Shown here one piece after another: positions 12,633-23,430 of a DNA stretch of 64,000 nucleotides. The notes below the pieces were generated by a model, which saw nothing but the letters and a program-made list of their open reading frames with translations, was not told the DNA's origin and made no database searches. The stretch is from contig JAHLWP010000003.1 of NCBI GenBank assembly GCA_019057865.1, forward strand, positions 64,001 to 128,000, written 5' to 3'. The position numbers and the translations under genes are program-made. This DNA comes from Promethearchaeota archaeon (GTDB taxonomy: Archaea > Asgardarchaeota > Lokiarchaeia > Sigyniarchaeales > SOKP01). The stretch's first letter is position 1, and each line of letters begins with the position of its first letter.

Positions 12633-13679
12633 ATGCCTTCTGCTATTGGAGTAATAAATGCTTTAACCGTTATTATATGGTTTACCCTTGGTTTAATATG
12701 GGGGATATTTAGTCTAATTAAATCAAAGAAATCAAAATCATATGTTTTATTTTCTATGGGTTTAGCTGTATTATTTATAAGCTTTTTATATTCAGGTTTG
12801 GTCTTAGATTCATTATTAGTTCTTTTTACAGAGAGCAACTTAGATACAAATATACATGGTATTCTTACATTTTTCTGGTTTGGTCCTTTAGTAATTATAG
12901 GTACCTATATATTTAATGAACTTATTGCGATGAACTTTAAATTATGGTTGAAGTATTTAATTTTAATTTATTTTTCAATAATAAGTATAATCTTTGAAAT
13001 TCTGTTATTTTTAACTCATTCAAGTTCGATCATTTATAAAATTCCCTCAGAACCTGGTCAAGACTTAATTGATAATATCTTAGTTTTTTGGACACCTCCA
13101 TTTTATATGCTGGCAATTTCTTTATTTCCTGGGATTATAGTATTTAGTCTTTCATTTTTATATGGGGGTATTAAATCCTCAGGAATATTAAGAAAGAAAC
13201 TCATATTATTATTAATCACTTTTGCAGTATTTTTTGGTTTTGGTTCTTTAGATATTGCTATTTTCCCTTTAGATTTCTTTAATTTACCTAAAGGTACATC
13301 AATAATTATAATAAGAGTTTTTATGATTATTGGGGGATTTATCTTTTTTTTTAGCTTAAAAGAAGAATCCATTAAAGCTTCCATTAAAAAATTTAAATCT
13401 GAAGAACCATCTCTTATAGATATTTTAACTGAGACTAAATCTAAAGATATATCACAAGAAAAAATCTTAGCATTTCGAGAACAAACAATATGTCTAATCT
13501 GTGAAAGAGAAATACAAGGCTTTATTAAAATTTTCTTATGTCCTCAATGTGAAGCATTATATTGTGAAAGATGCGCACAAAAGATGATAGAAATGAGTAA
13601 TATGTGTTGGATATGTGATGAGCAAATTGACGAATCAAAACCTGTTAAGCAAGATAATGATATATCTGGAAGCCTATAA
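12633..13679 (+). CDS. 7-TM membrane protein with C-terminal C4C4 RING-like zinc finger
   Basis: Seven TMs, then CLIC-x12-CPQC-x4-CERC-x10-CWIC (13491-13616). Confidence 0.8.
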   Translation: MPSAIGVINALTVIIWFTLGLIWGIFSLIKSKKSKSYVLFSMGLAVLFISFLYSGLVLDSLLVLFTESNLDTNIHGILTFFWFGPLVIIGTYIFNELIAMNFKLWLKYLILIYFSIISIIFEILLFLTHSSSIIYKIPSEPGQDLIDNILVFWTPPFYMLAISLFPGIIVFSLSFLYGGIKSSGILRKKLILLLITFAVFFGFGSLDIAIFPLDFFNLPKGTSIIIIRVFMIIGGFIFFFSLKEESIKASIKKFKSEEPSLIDILTETKSKDISQEKILAFREQTICLICEREIQGFIKIFLCPQCEALYCERCAQKMIEMSNMCWICDEQIDESKPVKQDNDISGSL

Positions 13680-13875: not shown

Positions 13876-14979
13876 ATTACTTTAACTCCTATTGGACTAT
13901 TTAACGGAATAACAGCAATTATTTGGTATATTACTGGCTTAATTTGGGGTTTCTTTAGTCTCTATAGATATAAAAAATCAAAAGCAGATATTTTATTGTA
14001 TTTTGGCTTAACAATTATATTCATAAGTATGTTTTTCACTGGTATTATTTTAGATTTTTTCACAATCCTCTTTACTGGCAAGAATTTGAATAATACCTCT
14101 GGAATTCATGGTATTTTAACATTTATATGGTTTGCTCCTACTCTCTCATTTGGGATATATATTGGTCTTGAATTTTTGATACCAGGTGTTAAAAAAGAAT
14201 TAAAAAATTCAATATTATTTACTTATATTATTTTAGCAATAATCTTTGATTTATTCCTTTTTTTAGACCCATTTGGTACTGTAGATTATAAGATGCCTTC
14301 AAAATCAGGGGAAAACTTAATTGATAATGTTTTAATTATAGGTTCTCCTGCTTCTATTTTAGTTATGATCTTTTTTGCAACAGCAATACTGTTCTATGTT
14401 GTAAGATTTTTGTATGGATCTGTTAAATCAACAGGTCTCTTAAGAGAGAAATTCACTAGACTAACTATATGTTTTTTTCTCTTAATAGGGTTTGGAACAG
14501 TGGATATTTTATTTTTCCTGCCGACTATAATTTTAATTATTGTTAGATATGGAATGGTTGTTAGTGGACTTTTTTTTGTTTTGGGAGTAAAAAAAGAAGA
14601 AGCGCCAACCAAACCAAAAGAAGTTATTCATGATGATGAAGTTGAGAGTGGAGTCCTAACAACTTCATTATCCAAGGTTTTATCATATTCTAGACCATCT
14701 GATATATCTACAAATGATATTGAGTTATATCGAAAACAAACAATCTGTTTAGTTTGTAAAAAAAAATTAAAAGGATTCATAGACGTTTTTATTTGCCCTA
14801 AATGTAAGTCATTTTATTGTGATAAATGCGCTCAAATATTAACTCAGTTAGAAAATATGTGTTGGTCATGTAATAATCCAATTGACGATTCAAAACCCAT
14901 TAAACCTTTTAAAATTGAAGAAGAAGATATCGATATCAGCATATCAGAAGGATCAAGGAAAACACTCAGAGAGGAATAG
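13876..14979 (+). CDS. 7-TM membrane protein with C-terminal C4C4 RING-like zinc finger (probable ATT start)
   Basis: The frame is open from 13873 and encodes TM1 (PIGLFNGITAIIWYITGLIWG), homologous to the 12633 paralog, upstream of the TTG at 13996. AGGTG SD at 13865. CLVC-x12-CPKC-x4-CDKC-x10-CWSC at 14746-14871. Confidence 0.8.
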   Translation: MTLTPIGLFNGITAIIWYITGLIWGFFSLYRYKKSKADILLYFGLTIIFISMFFTGIILDFFTILFTGKNLNNTSGIHGILTFIWFAPTLSFGIYIGLEFLIPGVKKELKNSILFTYIILAIIFDLFLFLDPFGTVDYKMPSKSGENLIDNVLIIGSPASILVMIFFATAILFYVVRFLYGSVKSTGLLREKFTRLTICFFLLIGFGTVDILFFLPTIILIIVRYGMVVSGLFFVLGVKKEEAPTKPKEVIHDDEVESGVLTTSLSKVLSYSRPSDISTNDIELYRKQTICLVCKKKLKGFIDVFICPKCKSFYCDKCAQILTQLENMCWSCNNPIDDSKPIKPFKIEEEDIDISISEGSRKTLREE

Positions 14980-15129: not shown

Positions 15130-15396
15130 ATGCGAATAACAGTTGAGGATTCACGAACAGGTAAAGTTATTAAACTTGATGTTAAGGAACATCATACAAT
15201 TGAAAGGATTATAGACATAATTGTAAAGCATATGGGCATTATTAGTGCTGAGGAACGTGCATACACTTTAGTATTAAATGGAAAGGAGTTACCTACAACA
15301 ATAACCATCGAGGATTCTGTCCATAAATTTGGTTTAAAAGAAAACGACAAATTAGCCTTATGGGCAAGAGTCATAGGGGGTTATTATAAACATTAA
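15130..15396 (+). CDS. Ubiquitin-like modifier precursor
   Basis: Ubiquitin-like pattern (MRITV..TGKVIKLDV..HTI..LVLNGKEL..GLKEND.L.L) ending RVIGG followed by YYKH. Confidence 0.9.
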   Translation: MRITVEDSRTGKVIKLDVKEHHTIERIIDIIVKHMGIISAEERAYTLVLNGKELPTTITIEDSVHKFGLKENDKLALWARVIGGYYKH

Positions 15397-15471: not shown

Positions 15472-16029
15472 CTAATCTATGATGACTATGTCATCCTTTT
15501 CTTCCTCTTCTTCTTCAATTTTGAATTCTCTCTTGAGGTCTTCCATAGTATTTTGCTTAAAAAAATTTGCTGCTTCTAAACAGACATCATATTTTAATGG
15601 ATCATCTGGATTAGGATTCTCCACTAATTTTTGCAAGGCTTTGACGGTAGTCTCTAAATCTGTAAGTCTTGACCATTTTTTTAGAATGTTTAAACAAATA
15701 TAGCCAGTTCCAGATTCGTAACGCAAGGGGGCTTTAGCAGGATGAATATTGGGATGAAATATATTTGATTGCCAAGAGAATCTAATACCTCCAGGATATG
15801 GAAAAGCTCTATTTAGTTCCAAATGAATTTGATGATCTTTCTGAGGAACAATATCAATTCCTTCCTTAAAAGTACCCATAATAAAACCTAAGGCTTTTAA
15901 ATTGATTAAAAACTTAACACTATTATCACTTTGAATTATTGAATTCGTATCGATAACGTTTAAGCTTTTTAAACTTTTAATTTCATTTTCAATCCTATTT
16001 TTCCAAATTTCTAAAGGAAGTTCTGGCAT
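15472..16029 (-). CDS. Ubiquitin-conjugating enzyme E2 (UBC fold)
   Basis: RI.NE, FPY, IFHPNI...GYICLNILKKW and NPNPDDPL; acidic C-terminal tail. Confidence 0.92.
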   Translation of the reverse strand: MPELPLEIWKNRIENEIKSLKSLNVIDTNSIIQSDNSVKFLINLKALGFIMGTFKEGIDIVPQKDHQIHLELNRAFPYPGGIRFSWQSNIFHPNIHPAKAPLRYESGTGYICLNILKKWSRLTDLETTVKALQKLVENPNPDDPLKYDVCLEAANFFKQNTMEDLKREFKIEEEEEEKDDIVIID

Positions 16030-16124: not shown

Positions 16125-17003
16125 TCATTTATTATCCTTATAAGAACATGTCCAACAATCTGGATTCTTTAACTTTTCAATAACTTCAAATTTATTTATT
16201 AGTCCATTGTAATTTAATTGTTTTCCTATTAGTGGTTCACCAATATGAGGATTCCATTTACCTTGTTCCTTAAAATGATCATTTCCTAATATAAATTTTA
16301 TTACTTGTTGAGATTGAATTCCTCCAATAATAGAAGTTGTAGTAATTATAGTTGCAATTTTACTAATAGTAGCTCCATTCGAAGATTCGATTTCTTCTCC
16401 CGTACAGGAAAACTTTAACCACATTAGATCTAGATCAGCGCCAGAAATCCCGCATTGCAAACAAGCAGCATCAGCAACTCCAGAATAAACAGCTTGGACT
16501 GATCCAAAGAATTCATCAATTCCAGAATCAATAAAAGGTACTTGATAATAATAAGCATAATTATTTGCTTCAAGTCTAGCTTCAACATTATCAAGACAAG
16601 AGCAAATCACATCCACTTGTTTATACAAATCTTTATCTATCTCATTAAGAGCTTTCTTTATTGTTAAAATTTTAACTTCAGGGTTGAGTTTTTCACACGC
16701 TGCTTTAATGATATCTACTTTATATTTATTTTCTACTTTATTTTCCATATTAAACAAAATACATCGATTAAGATTAGATTTTTCAATAATATCATAATCA
16801 ATAATAATTAACTTTCCAATTCCACTCAAGCATAAATTTTTAGCGACTTCGTTACCGGTTGCACCAACCCCTATTATCATTACCGTCGCATTTGAGATCT
16901 TATTTTGGTCCCATCCAGCAATTCGTTTCTGCCGATCATACTTATCGTCATTTATATCCTCCTCTCCTAAGAATTTATATTCATTATCACTATTTTCTGT
17001 CAT
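16125..17003 (-). CDS. Ubiquitin-activating enzyme E1 (ThiF/MoeB family)
   Basis: YDRQ, GVGATG, DYDIIEKSNLNR, LDNVEAR, Zn pairs CLQC/CWTC, candidate catalytic Cys in FSCTG. Confidence 0.92.
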   Translation of the reverse strand: MTENSDNEYKFLGEEDINDDKYDRQKRIAGWDQNKISNATVMIIGVGATGNEVAKNLCLSGIGKLIIIDYDIIEKSNLNRCILFNMENKVENKYKVDIIKAACEKLNPEVKILTIKKALNEIDKDLYKQVDVICSCLDNVEARLEANNYAYYYQVPFIDSGIDEFFGSVQAVYSGVADAACLQCGISGADLDLMWLKFSCTGEEIESSNGATISKIATIITTTSIIGGIQSQQVIKFILGNDHFKEQGKWNPHIGEPLIGKQLNYNGLINKFEVIEKLKNPDCWTCSYKDNK

Positions 17004-17021
17004 AATTTTACAGGACTATTT

Positions 17022-17540
17022 CTACTTGATAATGGCATAACTAATTTCTTTATACCCATTTTCGGATTGATCATTTAAAGTAAAAAATTTAAATTCATCT
17101 CTAATTGGATCAACAACTAAAGCTACATGATACGATCTATTAAAAATTAAGCTTTGCGTAGTTAAATCAACACTACTTAAAAAGCATCCAATATTTGGAT
17201 GGGAATGCCACCATCCTAAATTTAGTAAGTTTTCATTATTTTGATCTAATTTCAATTTATCATATTCCTCCGAATATTTAGAAAATTCAAATTGAATATT
17301 ATTTATTATTCCTTTTTCTCCTGATTCTTGAAATGAAAATTCATTTGCTATGAAAGCTTCCTTTATGTAAAGATAATGATTTAATAAAATATATTTCTGT
17401 TTATTCCAAATGTAGCGTTCTCCAACTAAATAACCAAAAACTTCATTTACATTTTCTTTACATATCTTTTTAATCCCTTCTATTACTTCTTTAGTAATAT
17501 ATAATGGAAATACGTAATTCTCGTCAATTGTCATAATCAT
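17022..17540 (-). CDS. JAB/MPN+ (JAMM) metalloprotease / deubiquitinase
   Basis: EVFGYLVG ... GWWHSHP..GCFLSSVD..TQ ... ALVVDP (Rpn11/AMSH-like). Confidence 0.92.
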   Translation of the reverse strand: MIMTIDENYVFPLYITKEVIEGIKKICKENVNEVFGYLVGERYIWNKQKYILLNHYLYIKEAFIANEFSFQESGEKGIINNIQFEFSKYSEEYDKLKLDQNNENLLNLGWWHSHPNIGCFLSSVDLTTQSLIFNRSYHVALVVDPIRDEFKFFTLNDQSENGYKEISYAIIK

Positions 17541-17568: not shown

Positions 17569-18492
17569 TTAGTTTGATTTTTCTATTTCAGAAACTTCCT
17601 TTTGTTTCATTTGAATTTTATTATAAATAGAATTTTTTAGAATTTCATTCATTATTATAAAAATATTTTTAGCTGAATCTTCTTGGATTGCTGTAAATCC
17701 ATATGTCTTTGCACCAAAAGTTTCTTGAATTTCTTTAGGGTCGAAAGATGTTTCTTTTAAATCCTGAAAATTGGCAATAATATAAAAATCTGCTTTCAGA
17801 ACCTTCTTCTTTAGTTTTAAATATAATTTTTTAGTTCTTCTTAAATTACTTGCTGCTGAATTAGTTATAATACAGATAATGTCGCATATGTTTAACAAAG
17901 ATTTATAGTGCTTTGAATTACTTATTAAATCTTCTAAATCAATTTCTTTCAAGATAAATTGCTTTATATTTCCTAGATTTGTTATATCAACTGGTTTTTC
18001 AATTATTTCAGTCATATCATCATCTATATCTAAAACAGTCTCTCCAGGAAATAAATCCATGATAGTAGTTTTTCCTACACCAATTTCTCCAACAAATAAT
18101 ACTTTTGGGGAAATAAAAATATATTCTTCAACAAATTCATCAAAACTTTCGAATATCTTAGTTTTACCTGTCCAGTTCTCTAGATATGTTTGGTATCTAT
18201 TGATAAACTCATTTTTCATTAATTCAACTTTTTCTCTCACTTCATCTTCCAAATCTTCTATATCTGTTACAATGACAAATATACAATCAAATTCAGAAGA
18301 ATAGGAATATATAAATTTGAAATTTTTAAAGTTAAGTGATTTTATTTCACCAACTTTAACTGCTTTAGCAAATCCACTAATTGCTGTAAGGAAGCCGCTA
18401 ATTAAATCATCTTCTACTTCACTGGGTCTTATATAATTCTTTGAATAACATAGTATCCCTCCTTTTGCGATAACGTAAATTCTTGATATCAT
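17569..18492 (-). CDS. Longin-like domain fused to degenerate small GTPase
   Basis: N-terminal IYVI..GG.LCYSK..DLISGFLTAISGFAK longin pattern. G1 GEIGVGKTT; no DxxG; G4 NFQD; G5 FTAI. Confidence 0.8.
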   Translation of the reverse strand: MISRIYVIAKGGILCYSKNYIRPSEVEDDLISGFLTAISGFAKAVKVGEIKSLNFKNFKFIYSYSSEFDCIFVIVTDIEDLEDEVREKVELMKNEFINRYQTYLENWTGKTKIFESFDEFVEEYIFISPKVLFVGEIGVGKTTIMDLFPGETVLDIDDDMTEIIEKPVDITNLGNIKQFILKEIDLEDLISNSKHYKSLLNICDIICIITNSAASNLRRTKKLYLKLKKKVLKADFYIIANFQDLKETSFDPKEIQETFGAKTYGFTAIQEDSAKNIFIIMNEILKNSIYNKIQMKQKEVSEIEKSN

Positions 18493-19009: not shown

Positions 19010-20083
19010 GTGGATCCGAAATTGCTTTCTGATGTAGGTTGGCTTAATGTTATCTCAATAATGGGCATTTTTATATTTGGCTGCTCTTTTGGATTATACT
19101 TTATGTATCAAGGTAGAAAGACTAACGTTAAACTCCTTTTTTATATGGGTTTGGGTATCCTTTTTAATGGTCTTTGGTATTGGGGAAATTTTTGGGAGTC
19201 GTTATCAATTCTTATCACAGGTGAAAATTTTGATAATGTATCAGGTATAAATGTACCATATGAATTACAGGCTATTATGAGCTTTATTTGGGTACCTTTA
19301 ACAATAATTTTTGTTGTGTATGTAGGTGGTGAGCTCCTAATACCTAAAAGAAAATGGTACATTGTAGGGTTTATTATATTTTTAACACTTGTATGGGAAT
19401 TGTTTCTTTTTTTAGATCCATTAGGATCTATATCAATTTATGTTCCCACAGTACCAGGTGAAGATCTCGTTGATGAAGATTTTATTATTAATTCTCTTTT
19501 ATACTTCATTGGTTTCTTATTCTCACTTACGAGCTTACTATTTCTTGGAATTGGTTATTTAATTAAAAGCATTAAATCAACAGACATATTAAGAAAAAAA
19601 TATTTTTATTTAGCAATTGGCTTTATTTTAAATCCCATGTTTGGAATGATTGAGGGATCAGGTATTATTGGTGTTGGTCTATTTTTAGTAAGAATTGGTA
19701 TGTCTTTTACTTTTTTATTGTATTACTTGGGTTTAAGAGAAGAACCCGCTAAAATTAAAATAGTACCTACTGAAAAAGAAGTTAAAATTGAAGATTCAAT
19801 ATTTAGGATTGCTAAAAAACCTGCCCAAATAACTGAAGAAGAAGTTACTTATTATAGAGAGCAGAAAATATGTTTAGTATGTAAAGGTAAGGCAGGGGGT
19901 TTCAATACGTATATTTGTACTGGATGTGATGCTTTATACTGTGAAAACTGTGCACGCGCATTATCCAGTATGGAAAATGTTTGTTGGGCCTGTAATGAGC
20001 CAATTGACAAGGAAAAACCTTCAAAACCATTTAAGATTGAGGGAGAAGAAGCTAAAGTTAAGGAAAAAGACAAGAAAATCTAA
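19010..20083 (+). CDS. 7-TM membrane protein with C-terminal C4C4 RING-like zinc finger
   Basis: Seven TMs; CLVC-x11-CTGC-x4-CENC-x10-CWAC (19871-19993); shared tail PID..KP.KPFKIE. Confidence 0.82.
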   Translation: MDPKLLSDVGWLNVISIMGIFIFGCSFGLYFMYQGRKTNVKLLFYMGLGILFNGLWYWGNFWESLSILITGENFDNVSGINVPYELQAIMSFIWVPLTIIFVVYVGGELLIPKRKWYIVGFIIFLTLVWELFLFLDPLGSISIYVPTVPGEDLVDEDFIINSLLYFIGFLFSLTSLLFLGIGYLIKSIKSTDILRKKYFYLAIGFILNPMFGMIEGSGIIGVGLFLVRIGMSFTFLLYYLGLREEPAKIKIVPTEKEVKIEDSIFRIAKKPAQITEEEVTYYREQKICLVCKGKAGGFNTYICTGCDALYCENCARALSSMENVCWACNEPIDKEKPSKPFKIEGEEAKVKEKDKKI

Positions 20084-20149: not shown

Positions 20150-22765
20150 TTACCTTGTACTTTGTATAAATCTCTTATCTTTTTTTCGTTCTTTTTCCCA
20201 TTTTTTACGTTCTGAACGTAATTTAAAGAGATCCACATCTTTAAAAATCATGTTCTCTTCTTTAGGTGGTATTATTCTTTCAATACGCTCTTTTTCTGGT
20301 GTGTAAATGAGAGATTCTCCGAATTCAGCGATATTTACAAAGAAACAATAAGCATATATTGACCTCCGGGCATCAAAATGGGCTGCTTTAAAATCAGCTG
20401 TAACGGGAGTAAAGGCTGGATTGAACATTAAGTCTATTGGAGGTTCAAAATTCTTAAGTTCAACTCTGAGATCCATATCAAGAAAATCTCTACATATAGC
20501 TATTGCCATTCTACCAAATTCGGTATTACATATAATAGTTTGTCTTGGTACTGCTTCTGTCTTGATACCTTCTTTAAATCTTTTTCCTTTAAAATGTATA
20601 ATTGCTGGAATATGTTTTTCTTGCTCCCAAAGAATTCCATCTGGACTAAAAACTGCACTTATATTTTGCCTAGTTTCTTTATTGTGATATGATCCCGGGA
20701 TTATGTACATTTCATATAATTTGGCAAAATTAGATATATCCTCAAGAAATTTACCATAATTGAGGTCAATGGACATTTCTGGAAAAATGAGGATATTTAC
20801 ACTGCTAGCATGGGCTTTTTCTATCATATCCTTAATCTTAGATCTAATCACATCAATTTTGTCTTTACGGAGTCCTAACAAACCAGGAGTTTTTTCTTTA
20901 TAGAATTCTTTTAAATAATCCCCAGTACTAGATACTCCTATTTGAGCAATACCCACTCTACATTCTCTTCTTTGAATTTTTGGATACTCTTTTAATAAAT
21001 CTCTATAAATTAGTTTATATTTTCTATTTTTACCCCTTTTTTCCACTTCTTTTTTCGGAGTTGGTTGCGGAATTGATGGTACCAATAAATCTAAAGTATT
21101 TTTGGATATAGAAGGTTCGCTGATTGTACCTAATGCAGAAATTATTATTTTCTCTTCTTTCTCTATTAAATTCAAGCGATCTATGACTTCCTTTTCTCTA
21201 TCGTTATATCCTGCTTTACCAAATAGTTCAGCTGCAGATTTTAATACGCCAGATCCAATTTTTAAAAGTTTTTTCTTTTCTTCAAGATTTAATTCTTCAT
21301 CTGCTCTGATTATATACCAAGTAGCATCAAAATAAGTAGAAGTAGCAAGAGCCCAATTTGCCTCACTTTTAAACTCACCCTTTTGATACAAATTTGCAGC
21401 ATTTCTTAACATCATTTTAATTTTTGGATAAAATTCTGCCTTGATAGATGTGTCGCCTGCCTTATCAAATTTACAACCTAAACCTAATGCTTGACAAAAA
21501 GCAGAATTTCCTAAAGCTAATGACTTTAGTTTACTATTCGTGAAATGTTTACTAGCTTTAGTAAATAACTCTGCTGCTTCTGAATATCTTTCAGGGTCTT
21601 CATATTCTTCAGCACATTCCATAGCCTCCCATGCTCTACAAAGAAAAGAAATGGCAGTAAGTTCTTCTACATCTTGTTCGAATTCTACTCTTGAGCACAT
21701 GTCTTTAAATTGAGTAGCAGCACAAGAAAATTTTTCTGCAGCCGCAAGATGCTCACCTTTTCTTTCTAAAATTCTTGCTTTTTCTATTTGATCCCAAATA
21801 TCTACATAATCAACCTTCTCATATTCAGCTTTTTCTTCACTATAAAAGACAGGTTCTTCTTCTATTGTGAGGATATGTTTCTTTTCTATTTTATCTAAAA
21901 TAGAAATTTTTAGTATTTCTTTTATTATAAAAATTATTTTAGTTTTAGATTCCTCTTTAATTGCTGTAAAGCCAAAAGTTTTAATTCCAAGCGTTTCTTC
22001 TATTTTTTCAGGCTCAAATGCAACATCTTTCAAATCTTGAAAGTTTGCTAGAAGATAAAAGTCATTTTTCTTTACTTCAGGTTTTAATTCTGAGACTAAA
22101 GTCTTTGTTCGACCCAAATTACTTGCCGCTGAATTCGTAACAATAAGTACAACATCAACAGATTTTAATAAGTTTTTGTATAGATGCGGATTATAGGTCA
22201 GTTCTTCCATATTAATTTCTTGTATAATACATTGATGTATTCCCTTTAAATTATCTAAATTAATAGGTTTTTGAATAACCTCATTTAAATTATCATCAAT
22301 TTCCAAAATAGTGTCACCAGGAATTAAATCCATAATTGTTGTTTTTCCTACACCATCTTCTCCAGTTAATAAGATCCTAGGTGGAATAAATACATTTTCA
22401 TCCACAAAATCATCAAAATCTTCAAAAACACTAACATTTCCTGTCCAATTCTCTAAAAATGGTCTATATCTTATTATGAATTCATTTTTCATCAGTTCAA
22501 GTTTAGTTCTTGTTTCTTGTACAAAATCATCTTTATCAATTACAATAACAAAGATGCAATCAAATTCAAATGAGTAAGAATATATAAACTTAAAATTTCT
22601 AAAATTAAGGGCTTTTACTTCACCCCCTTTAATTTCTTTGGCAAAATCACTAATAGCTTTCAGAAATCCACTAATAACTGTTTCATCTATATCAATCTGC
22701 TCAAAAAAATTCTTAGAATAACAGAGAATTCCTCCTCTCGCAATAATGAAAATTTTTAATATCAT
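20150..22765 (-). CDS. Longin + degenerate GTPase + TPR/SNAP-like helical repeats + carbon-nitrogen hydrolase (nitrilase) fusion
   Basis: The first ~290 aa are paralogous to 17569..18492. Ala/Glu-rich helical repeats follow. The C-terminus has VGIAQ, IFPEMS (E), QEKHIP (K) and AICRDF (C). Confidence 0.82.
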   Translation of the reverse strand: MILKIFIIARGGILCYSKNFFEQIDIDETVISGFLKAISDFAKEIKGGEVKALNFRNFKFIYSYSFEFDCIFVIVIDKDDFVQETRTKLELMKNEFIIRYRPFLENWTGNVSVFEDFDDFVDENVFIPPRILLTGEDGVGKTTIMDLIPGDTILEIDDNLNEVIQKPINLDNLKGIHQCIIQEINMEELTYNPHLYKNLLKSVDVVLIVTNSAASNLGRTKTLVSELKPEVKKNDFYLLANFQDLKDVAFEPEKIEETLGIKTFGFTAIKEESKTKIIFIIKEILKISILDKIEKKHILTIEEEPVFYSEEKAEYEKVDYVDIWDQIEKARILERKGEHLAAAEKFSCAATQFKDMCSRVEFEQDVEELTAISFLCRAWEAMECAEEYEDPERYSEAAELFTKASKHFTNSKLKSLALGNSAFCQALGLGCKFDKAGDTSIKAEFYPKIKMMLRNAANLYQKGEFKSEANWALATSTYFDATWYIIRADEELNLEEKKKLLKIGSGVLKSAAELFGKAGYNDREKEVIDRLNLIEKEEKIIISALGTISEPSISKNTLDLLVPSIPQPTPKKEVEKRGKNRKYKLIYRDLLKEYPKIQRRECRVGIAQIGVSSTGDYLKEFYKEKTPGLLGLRKDKIDVIRSKIKDMIEKAHASSVNILIFPEMSIDLNYGKFLEDISNFAKLYEMYIIPGSYHNKETRQNISAVFSPDGILWEQEKHIPAIIHFKGKRFKEGIKTEAVPRQTIICNTEFGRMAIAICRDFLDMDLRVELKNFEPPIDLMFNPAFTPVTADFKAAHFDARRSIYAYCFFVNIAEFGESLIYTPEKERIERIIPPKEENMIFKDVDLFKLRSERKKWEKERKKDKRFIQSTR

Positions 22766-22866: not shown

Positions 22867-23430
22867 TCAGCTTTTACCTTGCAATTCTAAGAATAATGCC
22901 TTATATTTATTATATAATTCTCTGATTATTACTTGAAAGGCCTGAGATACTCCTTCACCTGTTTTTGCTGATGTTCTATAATATTCAAGAAAATTTCCTT
23001 TTTTCATAATTTTTAAAATCTTTGTATCTACCAAATTCTCTTTATCAACTAAATCAACTTTATTAGCAAATACCACGATGGGAATATCACCACAAAATTT
23101 AAGAATATCATCATGCCAATTTGGTATATGCTTGAGACTATTTTTACCAAGATCATTTTCTTCAAGCGAATATACAATAATAGCTGCTTTGCTATCTCTA
23201 TAGAAGGAGGGTCGTAAGAAATGAAACTCATCTTGACCCGCAATATCCCAGAAAAAAAGCTCACAAAAGTCTCCATCTATTTCCATTTCATATATAGAAA
23301 ACTGTGCTCCAATAGTTTTGATGTATTCCTCTTGAAAATTACCTTCTGTAAATTTTTGTATTAAGGATGTTTTCCCTACTTGCCCATCTCCAATAACAGT
23401 TATTTTAAATACAAATTTTTGCCTTTTCAT
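22867..23430 (-). CDS. Rab-like small GTPase
   Basis: GDGQVGKT, YIKTIG, WDIAGQ, NKVD and TSAK; no C-terminal Cys prenylation motif. Confidence 0.92.
   Translation of the reverse strand: MKRQKFVFKITVIGDGQVGKTSLIQKFTEGNFQEEYIKTIGAQFSIYEMEIDGDFCELFFWDIAGQDEFHFLRPSFYRDSKAAIIVYSLEENDLGKNSLKHIPNWHDDILKFCGDIPIVVFANKVDLVDKENLVDTKILKIMKKGNFLEYYRTSAKTGEGVSQAFQVIIRELYNKYKALFLELQGKS

Follow-up and report, generated by a model that had tools for sequence, protein, structure and literature searches.

A longin, GTPase-like and nitrilase fusion protein at an accessory ubiquitin operon of Asgard archaea

Nitrilases have only recently been recognised as effectors in bacterial defence, in the systems DRT1 and UG5. 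DRT1 combines a reverse transcriptase (RT), an alpha-helical repeat and, as effector, a nitrilase that requires oligomer formation for activity; its C-terminal tail, which is conserved and domain-swapped, acts as the lid of the active site, and no substrate is known (PMC13275509). Phage defence by UG5 depends on the cysteine of its nitrilase (PMC13436386). Here we describe an archaeal protein that appears to carry a nitrilase of this kind behind a longin domain and a GTPase-like domain. It is encoded on the minus strand at positions 20150..22765 of a 64,000-nucleotide stretch of a Promethearchaeota archaeon genome (contig JAHLWP010000003.1, positions 64,001 to 128,000), which was analysed as a whole and is referred to below as the window (G+C approximately 29%). 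The open reading frame (ORF) is uninterrupted, and its 871 codons give a protein of 871 amino acids (aa) with four modules, namely a longin domain, a small-GTPase-like domain, a helical repeat and a nitrilase-fold domain (residues 582-871). We use the name LonGTP for the first two modules taken together, cassette for the last two, and fusion for the whole protein.

DRT1 (UG1) and UG5/DRT11, which are class 3 UG/Abi RT-nitrilases, are the best sequence relatives of the fusion nitrilase (PDB 9yfd; PMC13275509, PMC13436386). They also have the same layout, with an N-terminal regulatory module, a helical repeat, a C-terminal nitrilase and a conserved C-terminal tail. Unlike DRT1, however, the fusion has no RT, its N-terminus is of the longin and GTPase-like type, its host is an archaeon and its gene belongs to a ubiquitin operon. 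A further likeness, seen via the long paralogue P0045, is to the CARF-nitrilases of type III CRISPR systems, which follow the same logic of a sensor joined to a nitrilase effector, although the fusion has neither a CARF domain nor a CRISPR context. Within Asgard archaea, the closest proteins are TPR-nitrilases of approximately 1275 aa, for which we found no paper describing the family. Their last ~560 residues (helices, linker motif, nitrilase and the C-terminal FIQSTR) are common to both forms at 60-66% identity, whereas the ~700-residue helical scaffold that precedes them is replaced in the fusion by the 300-residue LonGTP, and the fusion gene is part of a ubiquitin operon. Ubiquitin operons of the E1/E2/RING/Rpn11 type are known in archaea from the Caldiarchaeum subterraneum type, and the window likewise clusters genes for a ubiquitin-like protein, a ThiF E1, a UQ_con E2, a JAB protein and RING-like proteins. 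Research on the origins of eukaryotic signalling looks to the ubiquitin operons and longin/GTPase proteins of Asgard archaea as forerunners, and longin-GTPase fusions are a known Asgard theme (10.1101/2020.10.19.343400). In the literature on Asgard nitrilase, C-N hydrolase, ubiquitin and longin, we found no mention of a LonGTP-headed ubiquitin operon or of its nitrilase fusion, and no paper was found that reports such a connection of ubiquitin tagging, GTPase-type regulation and an amidase.

Type of nitrilase and domain architecture

Among known proteins, the nitrilase domain was most similar to those of defence systems. With the PADLOC models, the fusion matched RTasNitrilase (RT-associated nitrilase; 49.5 bits, E 7.6e-14) and RT_UG5-nitrilase (40.9 bits, E 2.3e-11), both far above its score of 20.9 bits with the general CN_hydrolase model of Pfam. 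When the family profile was compared with the PDB, the top match was the nitrilase domain of DRT1 (9yfd_A, residues 948-1222; E 3e-22), with yeast Nit3 as the runner-up at an E value eight orders of magnitude higher (E 6e-14). In DRT1, the aligned region continued as far as residue 1222 of 1229, i.e., into the tail. This kinship is visible through sequence profiles only, as the pairwise similarity between the fusion and DRT1 is weak (E 0.93 in a phmmer search with the domain alone against the PDB, in which the matches were marginal). The long paralogue P0045 matched the PADLOC CARF-nitrilase model (PDLC01989; E 5e-18), while the fusion protein itself had no match to that model at E 0.01. NCBIfam assigned the domain to no family and to no metabolic equivalog. 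On profile evidence, the nitrilase is closer to the effector type (DRT1/UG5, RT-associated, CARF) than to other branches of the superfamily.

An exhaustive search found the same nitrilase clade on other N-terminal modules, namely alpha/beta hydrolase, HEAT plus TrmB and class II aldolase; further partners are LRR, MalT-type TPR, beta-helix/PKD and AAA_16 (STAND-type) domains. The genome that contains the window encodes two ordinary CN hydrolases (Pfam scores of 100-141 bits) and five of the divergent type. One of these lies on the same contig, outside the window, at the C-terminus of a 690-aa LRR protein (L017:7027-9099; G000:C54, ~203 kb). Its nitrilase is of the same divergent clade, is 27% identical to that of the fusion, and is the fifth effector-type nitrilase of the genome.

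The four-module anatomy given in the initial annotation was borne out by the ORF, by AlphaFold2 (AF2) models and by structure and profile matches. The parts of the protein are listed here with the evidence for each, including the predicted local distance difference test score (pLDDT) of the models:

22388..22765 (-), residues 1-126: predicted longin domain (AF2 topology, VIA, profile match to AP-2 sigma)
21878..22387 (-), residues 127-296: small-GTPase-like domain (Foldseek, VIA, motif conservation, weak Pfam Arf match)
21818..21877 (-), residues 297-316: acidic, poorly conserved junction linker (pLDDT <50; least conserved block of the protein)
21128..21817 (-), residues 317-546: helical-repeat module of nine helices (pLDDT ~90; common to the ~1275-aa TPR-nitrilase family)
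21023..21127 (-), residues 547-581: linker with the conserved motif SAL-TI-EP--S--T, then a variable stretch (pLDDT <50 in the full-length model)
20231..21022 (-), residues 582-845: nitrilase-superfamily domain (domain model, Foldseek, VIA, residue conservation, PADLOC)
20150..20230 (-), residues 846-871 and the stop codon: C-terminal helix and invariant tail KLRSERKKW...FIQSTR (homologue alignment)

The full-length AF2 model, which had an alignment of 41 homologues as input, was confident at residues 1-296 and 320-546, with low-confidence linkers at 297-315 and 542-595 and a pLDDT below 50 in the nitrilase half. For the nitrilase, a separate model of residues 578-871 was made, with an alignment of 50 diverse relatives that an exhaustive HMMER search had supplied, and this model reached a pLDDT of 95.7 and a predicted template modelling score (pTM) of 0.93. 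Foldseek matched it to mouse Nit2 (E 3.4e-14). In VIA, the best match was 2w1v (Z 25.7, root-mean-square deviation (rmsd) 3.9 Å, 240 residues aligned), followed closely by 1ems (Z 24.7) and 1f89 (Z 24.0), and more than 200 chains were found at a Z of at least 8. Residues 582-871 are thus predicted to adopt the four-layer alpha-beta-beta-alpha fold of the nitrilase superfamily. The Foldseek check therefore confirmed the superfamily, but the branch was not resolved by structure: NitFhit, formamidase, carbamoylases, aliphatic amidase, beta-ureidopropionase, vanin and true nitrilases all gave Z scores of 23-25. The best solved fold matches, Nit2, Nit3 and NitFhit, belong to branch 10 (omega-amidase-type) and have the Glu-Lys-Glu-Cys residues aligned with those of the fusion. 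Nit enzymes are free-standing, whereas the fusion is multidomain, their identity to it is 16-20%, and the other branches follow within approximately 2 Z units. The Pfam model CN_hydrolase (PF00795) gave 20.9 bits for the fusion protein, against a gathering cut-off of 23.2, while the same region searched as genome DNA gave 23.9 bits, above the cut-off, and homologues 62-66% identical over the shared module gave 26-39 bits.

The catalytic centre is complete. Glu663, Lys717, Glu732 and Cys758 fall on the positions of the catalytic residues in Nit2, Nit3 and DRT1, and the Glu-Lys-Cys triad, which had been described as intact from the letters alone, is indeed kept in nearly all of the 50 relatives (E663 and K717 in 49, C758 in 48). 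E732, the counterpart in the alignment of the other catalytic Glu in Nit2, is present in 26 of the 50, including all close ones. The codons, all on the minus strand, are as follows:

20777-20779 (-): E663
20615-20617 (-): K717
20570-20572 (-): E732
20492-20494 (-): C758

The C-terminal FIQSTR is identical in 24 of 24 homologues, as is the preceding KLRSERKKW; in the monomer model the tail has a pLDDT of 49.

At the other end of the protein, residues 1-297 give a gapless alignment with the 307-aa protein encoded at 17569..18492 (-), at 58% identity (E 4e-117), and the paralogy noted initially is therefore real. The first part has the topology b-b-a-b-b-b-a-a over residues 2-124 (AF2 and DSSP). 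Compared with structural representatives in VIA, residues 1-126 superpose on residues 8-140 of 7q3d_C, a longin domain of the human CPLANE complex (Z 13.9, rmsd 2.5 Å, 123 aligned). A profile built from 18 homologues of this domain matched AP-2 sigma (E 0.0018, aligned from residue 1) and the SRX domain (E 0.2), which are both longin folds, and a search of the ESM Atlas gave Fuz_longin_1 as a weak lead (score 0.83). On these models and matches, residues 1-126 are predicted to be a longin domain.

The domain that follows (Rossmann-like, residues 130-296) resembles Arf, Rab and SRbeta in Foldseek and VIA. Its top Foldseek matches were MglA, Arl1 and Arf, and in VIA it matched Arf1 (Z 17.1, rmsd 2.8 Å, 152 aligned) as well as Rabs and other small GTPases. 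The G1 P-loop GEDGVGKT is intact, and in the alignment the first Gly, the last Gly and the Lys of GxxxxGKT are conserved in 100% and the Thr in 94%. G4 reads N241-F-Q-D244, with N, Q and D at 100% and F at 97%, such that the Lys of NKxD is replaced by Phe. At the G5 position, F-T/S-A-I (TAI or SAI) is kept. In contrast, the DxxG of G3 and the catalytic Gln are gone: the fusion has E183-I-N-M186-E-E, and the family consensus E-I-D-L-E-E has neither the Gly nor the Gln. The description of this domain as a degenerate GTPase thus applies to switch II, where DxxG is lost, but not to the motifs for nucleotide binding, where the P-loop and TAI are kept and G4 is kept as NFQD, with Phe in place of Lys. 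The neighbouring Rab-like protein (22867..23430) carries all canonical motifs, including WDIAGQ at G3, and therefore the divergence is specific to the LonGTP module. LonGTP probably binds nucleotide but without Ras-like cycling. Tri-longin Rab exchange factors (Fuzzy-Inturned/CPLANE, Mon1-Ccz1) and SRX-SRbeta are alike in the longin, in the Arf/Rab/SRbeta-like G domain and in the adjacent Rab-like gene, but here longin and G domain share one chain and the G domain has no DxxG. After strand 4 of the G domain (residues 206-222; window 22100-22150), we also observed the motif T-N-S-x-A-S-N-L-x-R-T, which is nearly invariant in the LonGTP family, with S212 and N216 at 100%; canonical small GTPases have no counterpart known to us.

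Between LonGTP and the nitrilase, AF2 places nine antiparallel helices (320-546, pLDDT ~90). In structure searches with the full-length model, the result rows were filled by the GTPase domain (Foldseek and VIA). The cassette is 66% identical to residues 706-1274 of P0045, and the helices of the fusion also resemble upstream helices of P0045 (E 3e-06), in a stretch that overlaps a weak TPR_12 match. A nine-helix repeat is thus present, but no Pfam TPR or SNAP model matched the fusion protein at E <= 1, and the proposed label TPR/SNAP-like is supported only indirectly, via the repeats of P0045. The linker before the nitrilase (window 21023-21127) is otherwise disordered, and its motif S-A-L-x-T-I-x-E-P-x-x-S-x-x-T is kept in fused and long forms.

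Occurrence of the fusion in other genomes and its place beside ubiquitin genes

A word-indexed search found approximately 35 clusters of 860-880 aa that cover the whole fusion at 61-97% identity, with source labels of Promethearchaeota, Hodarchaeota, Hermodarchaeota and Lokiarchaeota. In the same search, hundreds of ~1275-aa proteins matched only residues ~310-871, at 60-66% identity, and had ~700 residues of further helical repeats at their N-terminus. Among 301 genomes sampled from the phylum, the full-length fusion occurs in 12, which belong to two genera and all to one family (f1), while the long form occurs in several families; the genome of the window has three long TPR-nitrilase paralogues. 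The recurrence of the fusion in other genomes, which had been named as a check, was thus borne out. A maximum-likelihood tree was built for the cassette that fused and long forms share. All 32 fused proteins fall into a single clade (SH-aLRT 100), and with alpha/beta-hydrolase-nitrilase relatives as the root this clade is nested among the long forms with moderate support (80-93).

All 37 LonGTP carriers of 539-2000 aa are nitrilase fusions. No other C-terminal partner of LonGTP was found among proteins of this length, and LonGTP is therefore not a promiscuous adaptor. Together, the single fused clade and the nitrilase on every long LonGTP protein indicate that the fusion arose once and is maintained, and that it is no assembly artefact. 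An assembly chimera was considered and rejected, given that independent assemblies carry the fusion and that the fused forms are monophyletic. Two variants were seen. A 655-aa form (P0039 and P0040, from metagenome contigs) consists of LonGTP and nitrilase with most of the helices missing. In G156:C65:8839-11324, the fusion is spread over two frames, with LonGTP in a 365-aa frame and the helices and nitrilase in a 556-aa frame, for which a frameshift, an error in sequencing or a true split of the gene could account.

In the window, the fusion lies near the following genes:

15130..15396 (+): ubiquitin-like protein, convergent with the E2 gene (weak Pfam Rad60-SLD match)
15472..16029 (-): E2, UQ_con (Pfam)
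16125..17003 (-): E1, ThiF (Pfam)
17022..17540 (-): JAB (Pfam)
17569..18492 (-): standalone LonGTP of 307 aa, at the head of the JAB-E1-E2 string (paralogue of fusion residues 1-297)
19010..20083 (+): RING-like gene between the fusion and the standalone LonGTP, convergent with the fusion (weak zinc-finger Pfam matches)
12633-13679 and 13996-14979: RING-like paralogues (similarity to the product of 19010..20083)
22867..23430 (-): canonical Rab/Ras-like GTPase, 101 nucleotides upstream of the fusion (Pfam Ras 143.7 bits; GDGQVGKT, WDIAGQ, NKVD, SAK)

This neighbourhood also holds two Ras-family proteins with N-terminal extensions.

We compared the window proteins by tblastn with ten other loci that carry the fusion. 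In five of them (64-71% identity), the order is Ras-fusion-JAB-E1-E2 on one strand with the ubiquitin-like gene convergent, and the fusion thus occupies the exact slot held by the standalone LonGTP in the window. Two loci from close relatives have the order of the window, with the RING gene and standalone LonGTP in between. Another two have only the RING gene beside the fusion, and in the last one the contig begins at the fusion. Overall, operon synteny was counted in 8 of the 10 fused loci and in 13 of 13 standalone loci, and the proposed link of the fusion to the ubiquitin cluster is a recurrent one. As in the window, the Rab-like GTPase gene adjoins that of the fusion in 7 of these 10 loci, and the RING-like gene recurs beside the fusion in other loci as well.

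The standalone LonGTP loci of family f1 are even more regular, since in all 13, one to three copies of LonGTP are followed by JAB, E1 and E2, with the ubiquitin-like gene convergent; none of the operon loci examined lacks that gene, which is conserved at 74-97% identity. In the family f1 genomes covered by both searches, the presence of LonGTP and of the operon E1 coincides, and both are missing from several genomes rated 98-100% complete. Of 121 genomes of the family, 59 had an orthologue of the operon E1, and the operon is therefore accessory. Distant LonGTP homologues in other Asgard families (27-35% identity) do not have JAB, E1 or E2 adjacent, so that the link to the operon is shown for family f1 only.

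A second, weaker association connects long TPR-nitrilase genes with the operon. In G065:C66 (L069:6200-11774) and G219:C60 (L070:11600-17635), one or two such genes lie divergently 2-6 kb from LonGTP-JAB-E1-E2, and in G121:C33 the operon E1 (161166-162023) adjoins two long forms (152231-157896).

Possible role of the fusion and rival explanations

The reading towards which we lean, with modest confidence, is that the fusion is an effector-type amidase controlled by LonGTP, and that it serves as the regulated, possibly antiviral, output of an accessory locus of ubiquitin and Rab-like genes. The fusion would join two pre-existing units, LonGTP as the head gene of the operon and the helical-repeat/nitrilase cassette of the ~1275-aa family. 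LonGTP would act as an adaptor or regulator of the operon, probably pairing with the neighbouring Rab-like GTPase and/or with the RING and ubiquitin machinery. In the fusion, it would govern an assembly-dependent nitrilase activity, because nitrilases need oligomers and the C-terminal tail of DRT1 closes the active site. By analogy to DRT1, control would most likely run through oligomerisation and the invariant C-terminal tail. Since the fusion stands directly before JAB-E1-E2 in five of ten loci and LonGTP is the regular first gene of the operon, the initial annotation's idea of a switch-regulated amidase as the output of the cluster is a reasonable one, albeit without the Nta1-type role (see below). 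As substrate, we consider a small-molecule or other non-peptide C-N bond (amide or related) more likely than N-terminal Asn or Gln.

Several observations weigh against this reading. Gene order is the sole link to ubiquitin, and the compared genomes are close kin, such that the conserved synteny represents few independent events. In the two fused loci where the RING gene alone is beside the fusion, the operon is found elsewhere with three tandem LonGTP genes, and the long TPR-nitrilase paralogues of the window genome have no ubiquitin genes among their neighbours. Structure comparison gives no nitrilase branch, as all branches tie in VIA (Z 23-25.7). Finally, paralogues share 60-66% identity in the cassette, also between Asgard families. 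Such conservation is unusual for a defence effector and might speak for a housekeeping role.

The high conservation of the cassette would also fit an accidental fusion of neighbouring genes with no functional coupling, in which LonGTP merely replaced the TPR scaffold and the cassette does the same job, perhaps metabolic or housekeeping, as in the long paralogues. The nesting of the fused clade inside the long family is consistent with such an accident, and the long TPR-nitrilase genes a few kilobases from the operon in G065 and G219 indicate that there was opportunity for it. However, the ORF is intact down to 61% identity in two genera with all motifs kept, the operon slot is retained in most genomes, and the 655-aa variant has shed most helices yet retains both LonGTP and nitrilase; we consider an accident quite unlikely. 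A different explanation would be that the nitrilase acts on ubiquitin chemistry itself, either by acyl-lysine (isopeptide) hydrolysis or formation via a Cys thioester or by deamidation of ubiquitin or its targets, which would make the fusion a new deconjugating or editing enzyme beside JAB. Members of the nitrilase superfamily form an acyl-thioester intermediate, biotinidase cleaves acyl-lysine-type amides and Lnt transfers acyl groups to amines, all of which we count in favour of this explanation, as we do the conserved position of the fusion in the ubiquitin operon, the nitrilase on every longer LonGTP fusion and a match of the family profile to pantetheinase/vanin (E 2.5e-5). Against it, similarity to biotinidase, Lnt and Nta1 does not rise above that to other branches, the same cassette is found on TPR, LRR and beta-helix proteins without nearby ubiquitin genes, and the operon already has an isopeptidase in JAB, and we regard a direct action on ubiquitin as unlikely. 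The initial suggestion of proteins or ubiquitin conjugates as substrates is likewise speculative.

The initial annotation had drawn an analogy to yeast Nta1 (branch 3), which is of the same superfamily and has a conceptual tie to ubiquitin-dependent degradation. A protein of this kind would convert N-terminal Asn or Gln and feed an N-degron-type ubiquitin pathway, and the nitrilase fold, the intact triad and a ubiquitin operon with candidate RING-type ligases would all be in keeping with that. The analogy was not supported, however. Nta1 has another domain context, and no specific similarity to it appeared in the PDB profile or VIA matches: the family profile matched 52 PDB sequences (E <= 10), none of them an N-terminal amidase, and the top 50 VIA rows contained none either, the presence of Nta1 chains in those libraries being unconfirmed, and the nearest relatives were the nitrilases of defence RTs and CARF effectors. 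We therefore hold an N-terminal amidase to be very unlikely.

A broader extension of the LonGTP-controlled amidase is speculative and, in our view, rather doubtful, namely that the LonGTP-JAB-E1-E2/RING/Rab-like locus is an Asgard immune or stress system in which eukaryote-type signalling gates a prokaryotic nitrilase of the abortive-infection type, with the fusion as a covalent link between sensor or adaptor and effector. If true, no earlier case would exist in which ubiquitin/GTPase signalling is coupled to a nitrilase effector, and the locus might give insight into the earliest use of ubiquitin and trafficking modules. In any case, the fusion offers a testable handle on the purpose of the accessory Asgard ubiquitin system, on the role of a longin joined to a switch-less G domain and on the substrate of effector nitrilases, and both the 871-aa protein, which is soluble, and the 307-aa paralogue lend themselves well to biochemistry and cryo-electron microscopy.

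Further observations on the operon and its relatives

The genome encodes two further pairs of E1-like and E2 proteins (G000:C18:54306-57213 and G000:C41:62546-64320). Their E2s score 87-91 bits with UQ_con, as opposed to 45.6 bits for the E2 of the window, and by this measure the operon of the window looks like the most divergent of the three E1-E2 systems.

Tandem arrays of two or three diverged LonGTP copies stand directly before JAB in L059, L060, L061, L062 and L064, with 46-57% identity to the window copy. One of the long paralogues of the window genome (on G000:C9) has as neighbours, at L015:6294-9711, a histone-deacetylase-family amidohydrolase and a 739-aa protein that has no Pfam match and whose N-terminus is weakly similar to the LonGTP longin. 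Lastly, in three genomes (G109:C110:20513-21016, G201:C17:226559-227056 and G240:C161:11298-11807), a frame of ~340 aa stands before the operon E1 and is similar to LonGTP in the G-domain half alone, which suggests a different N-terminal domain in the same operon slot.

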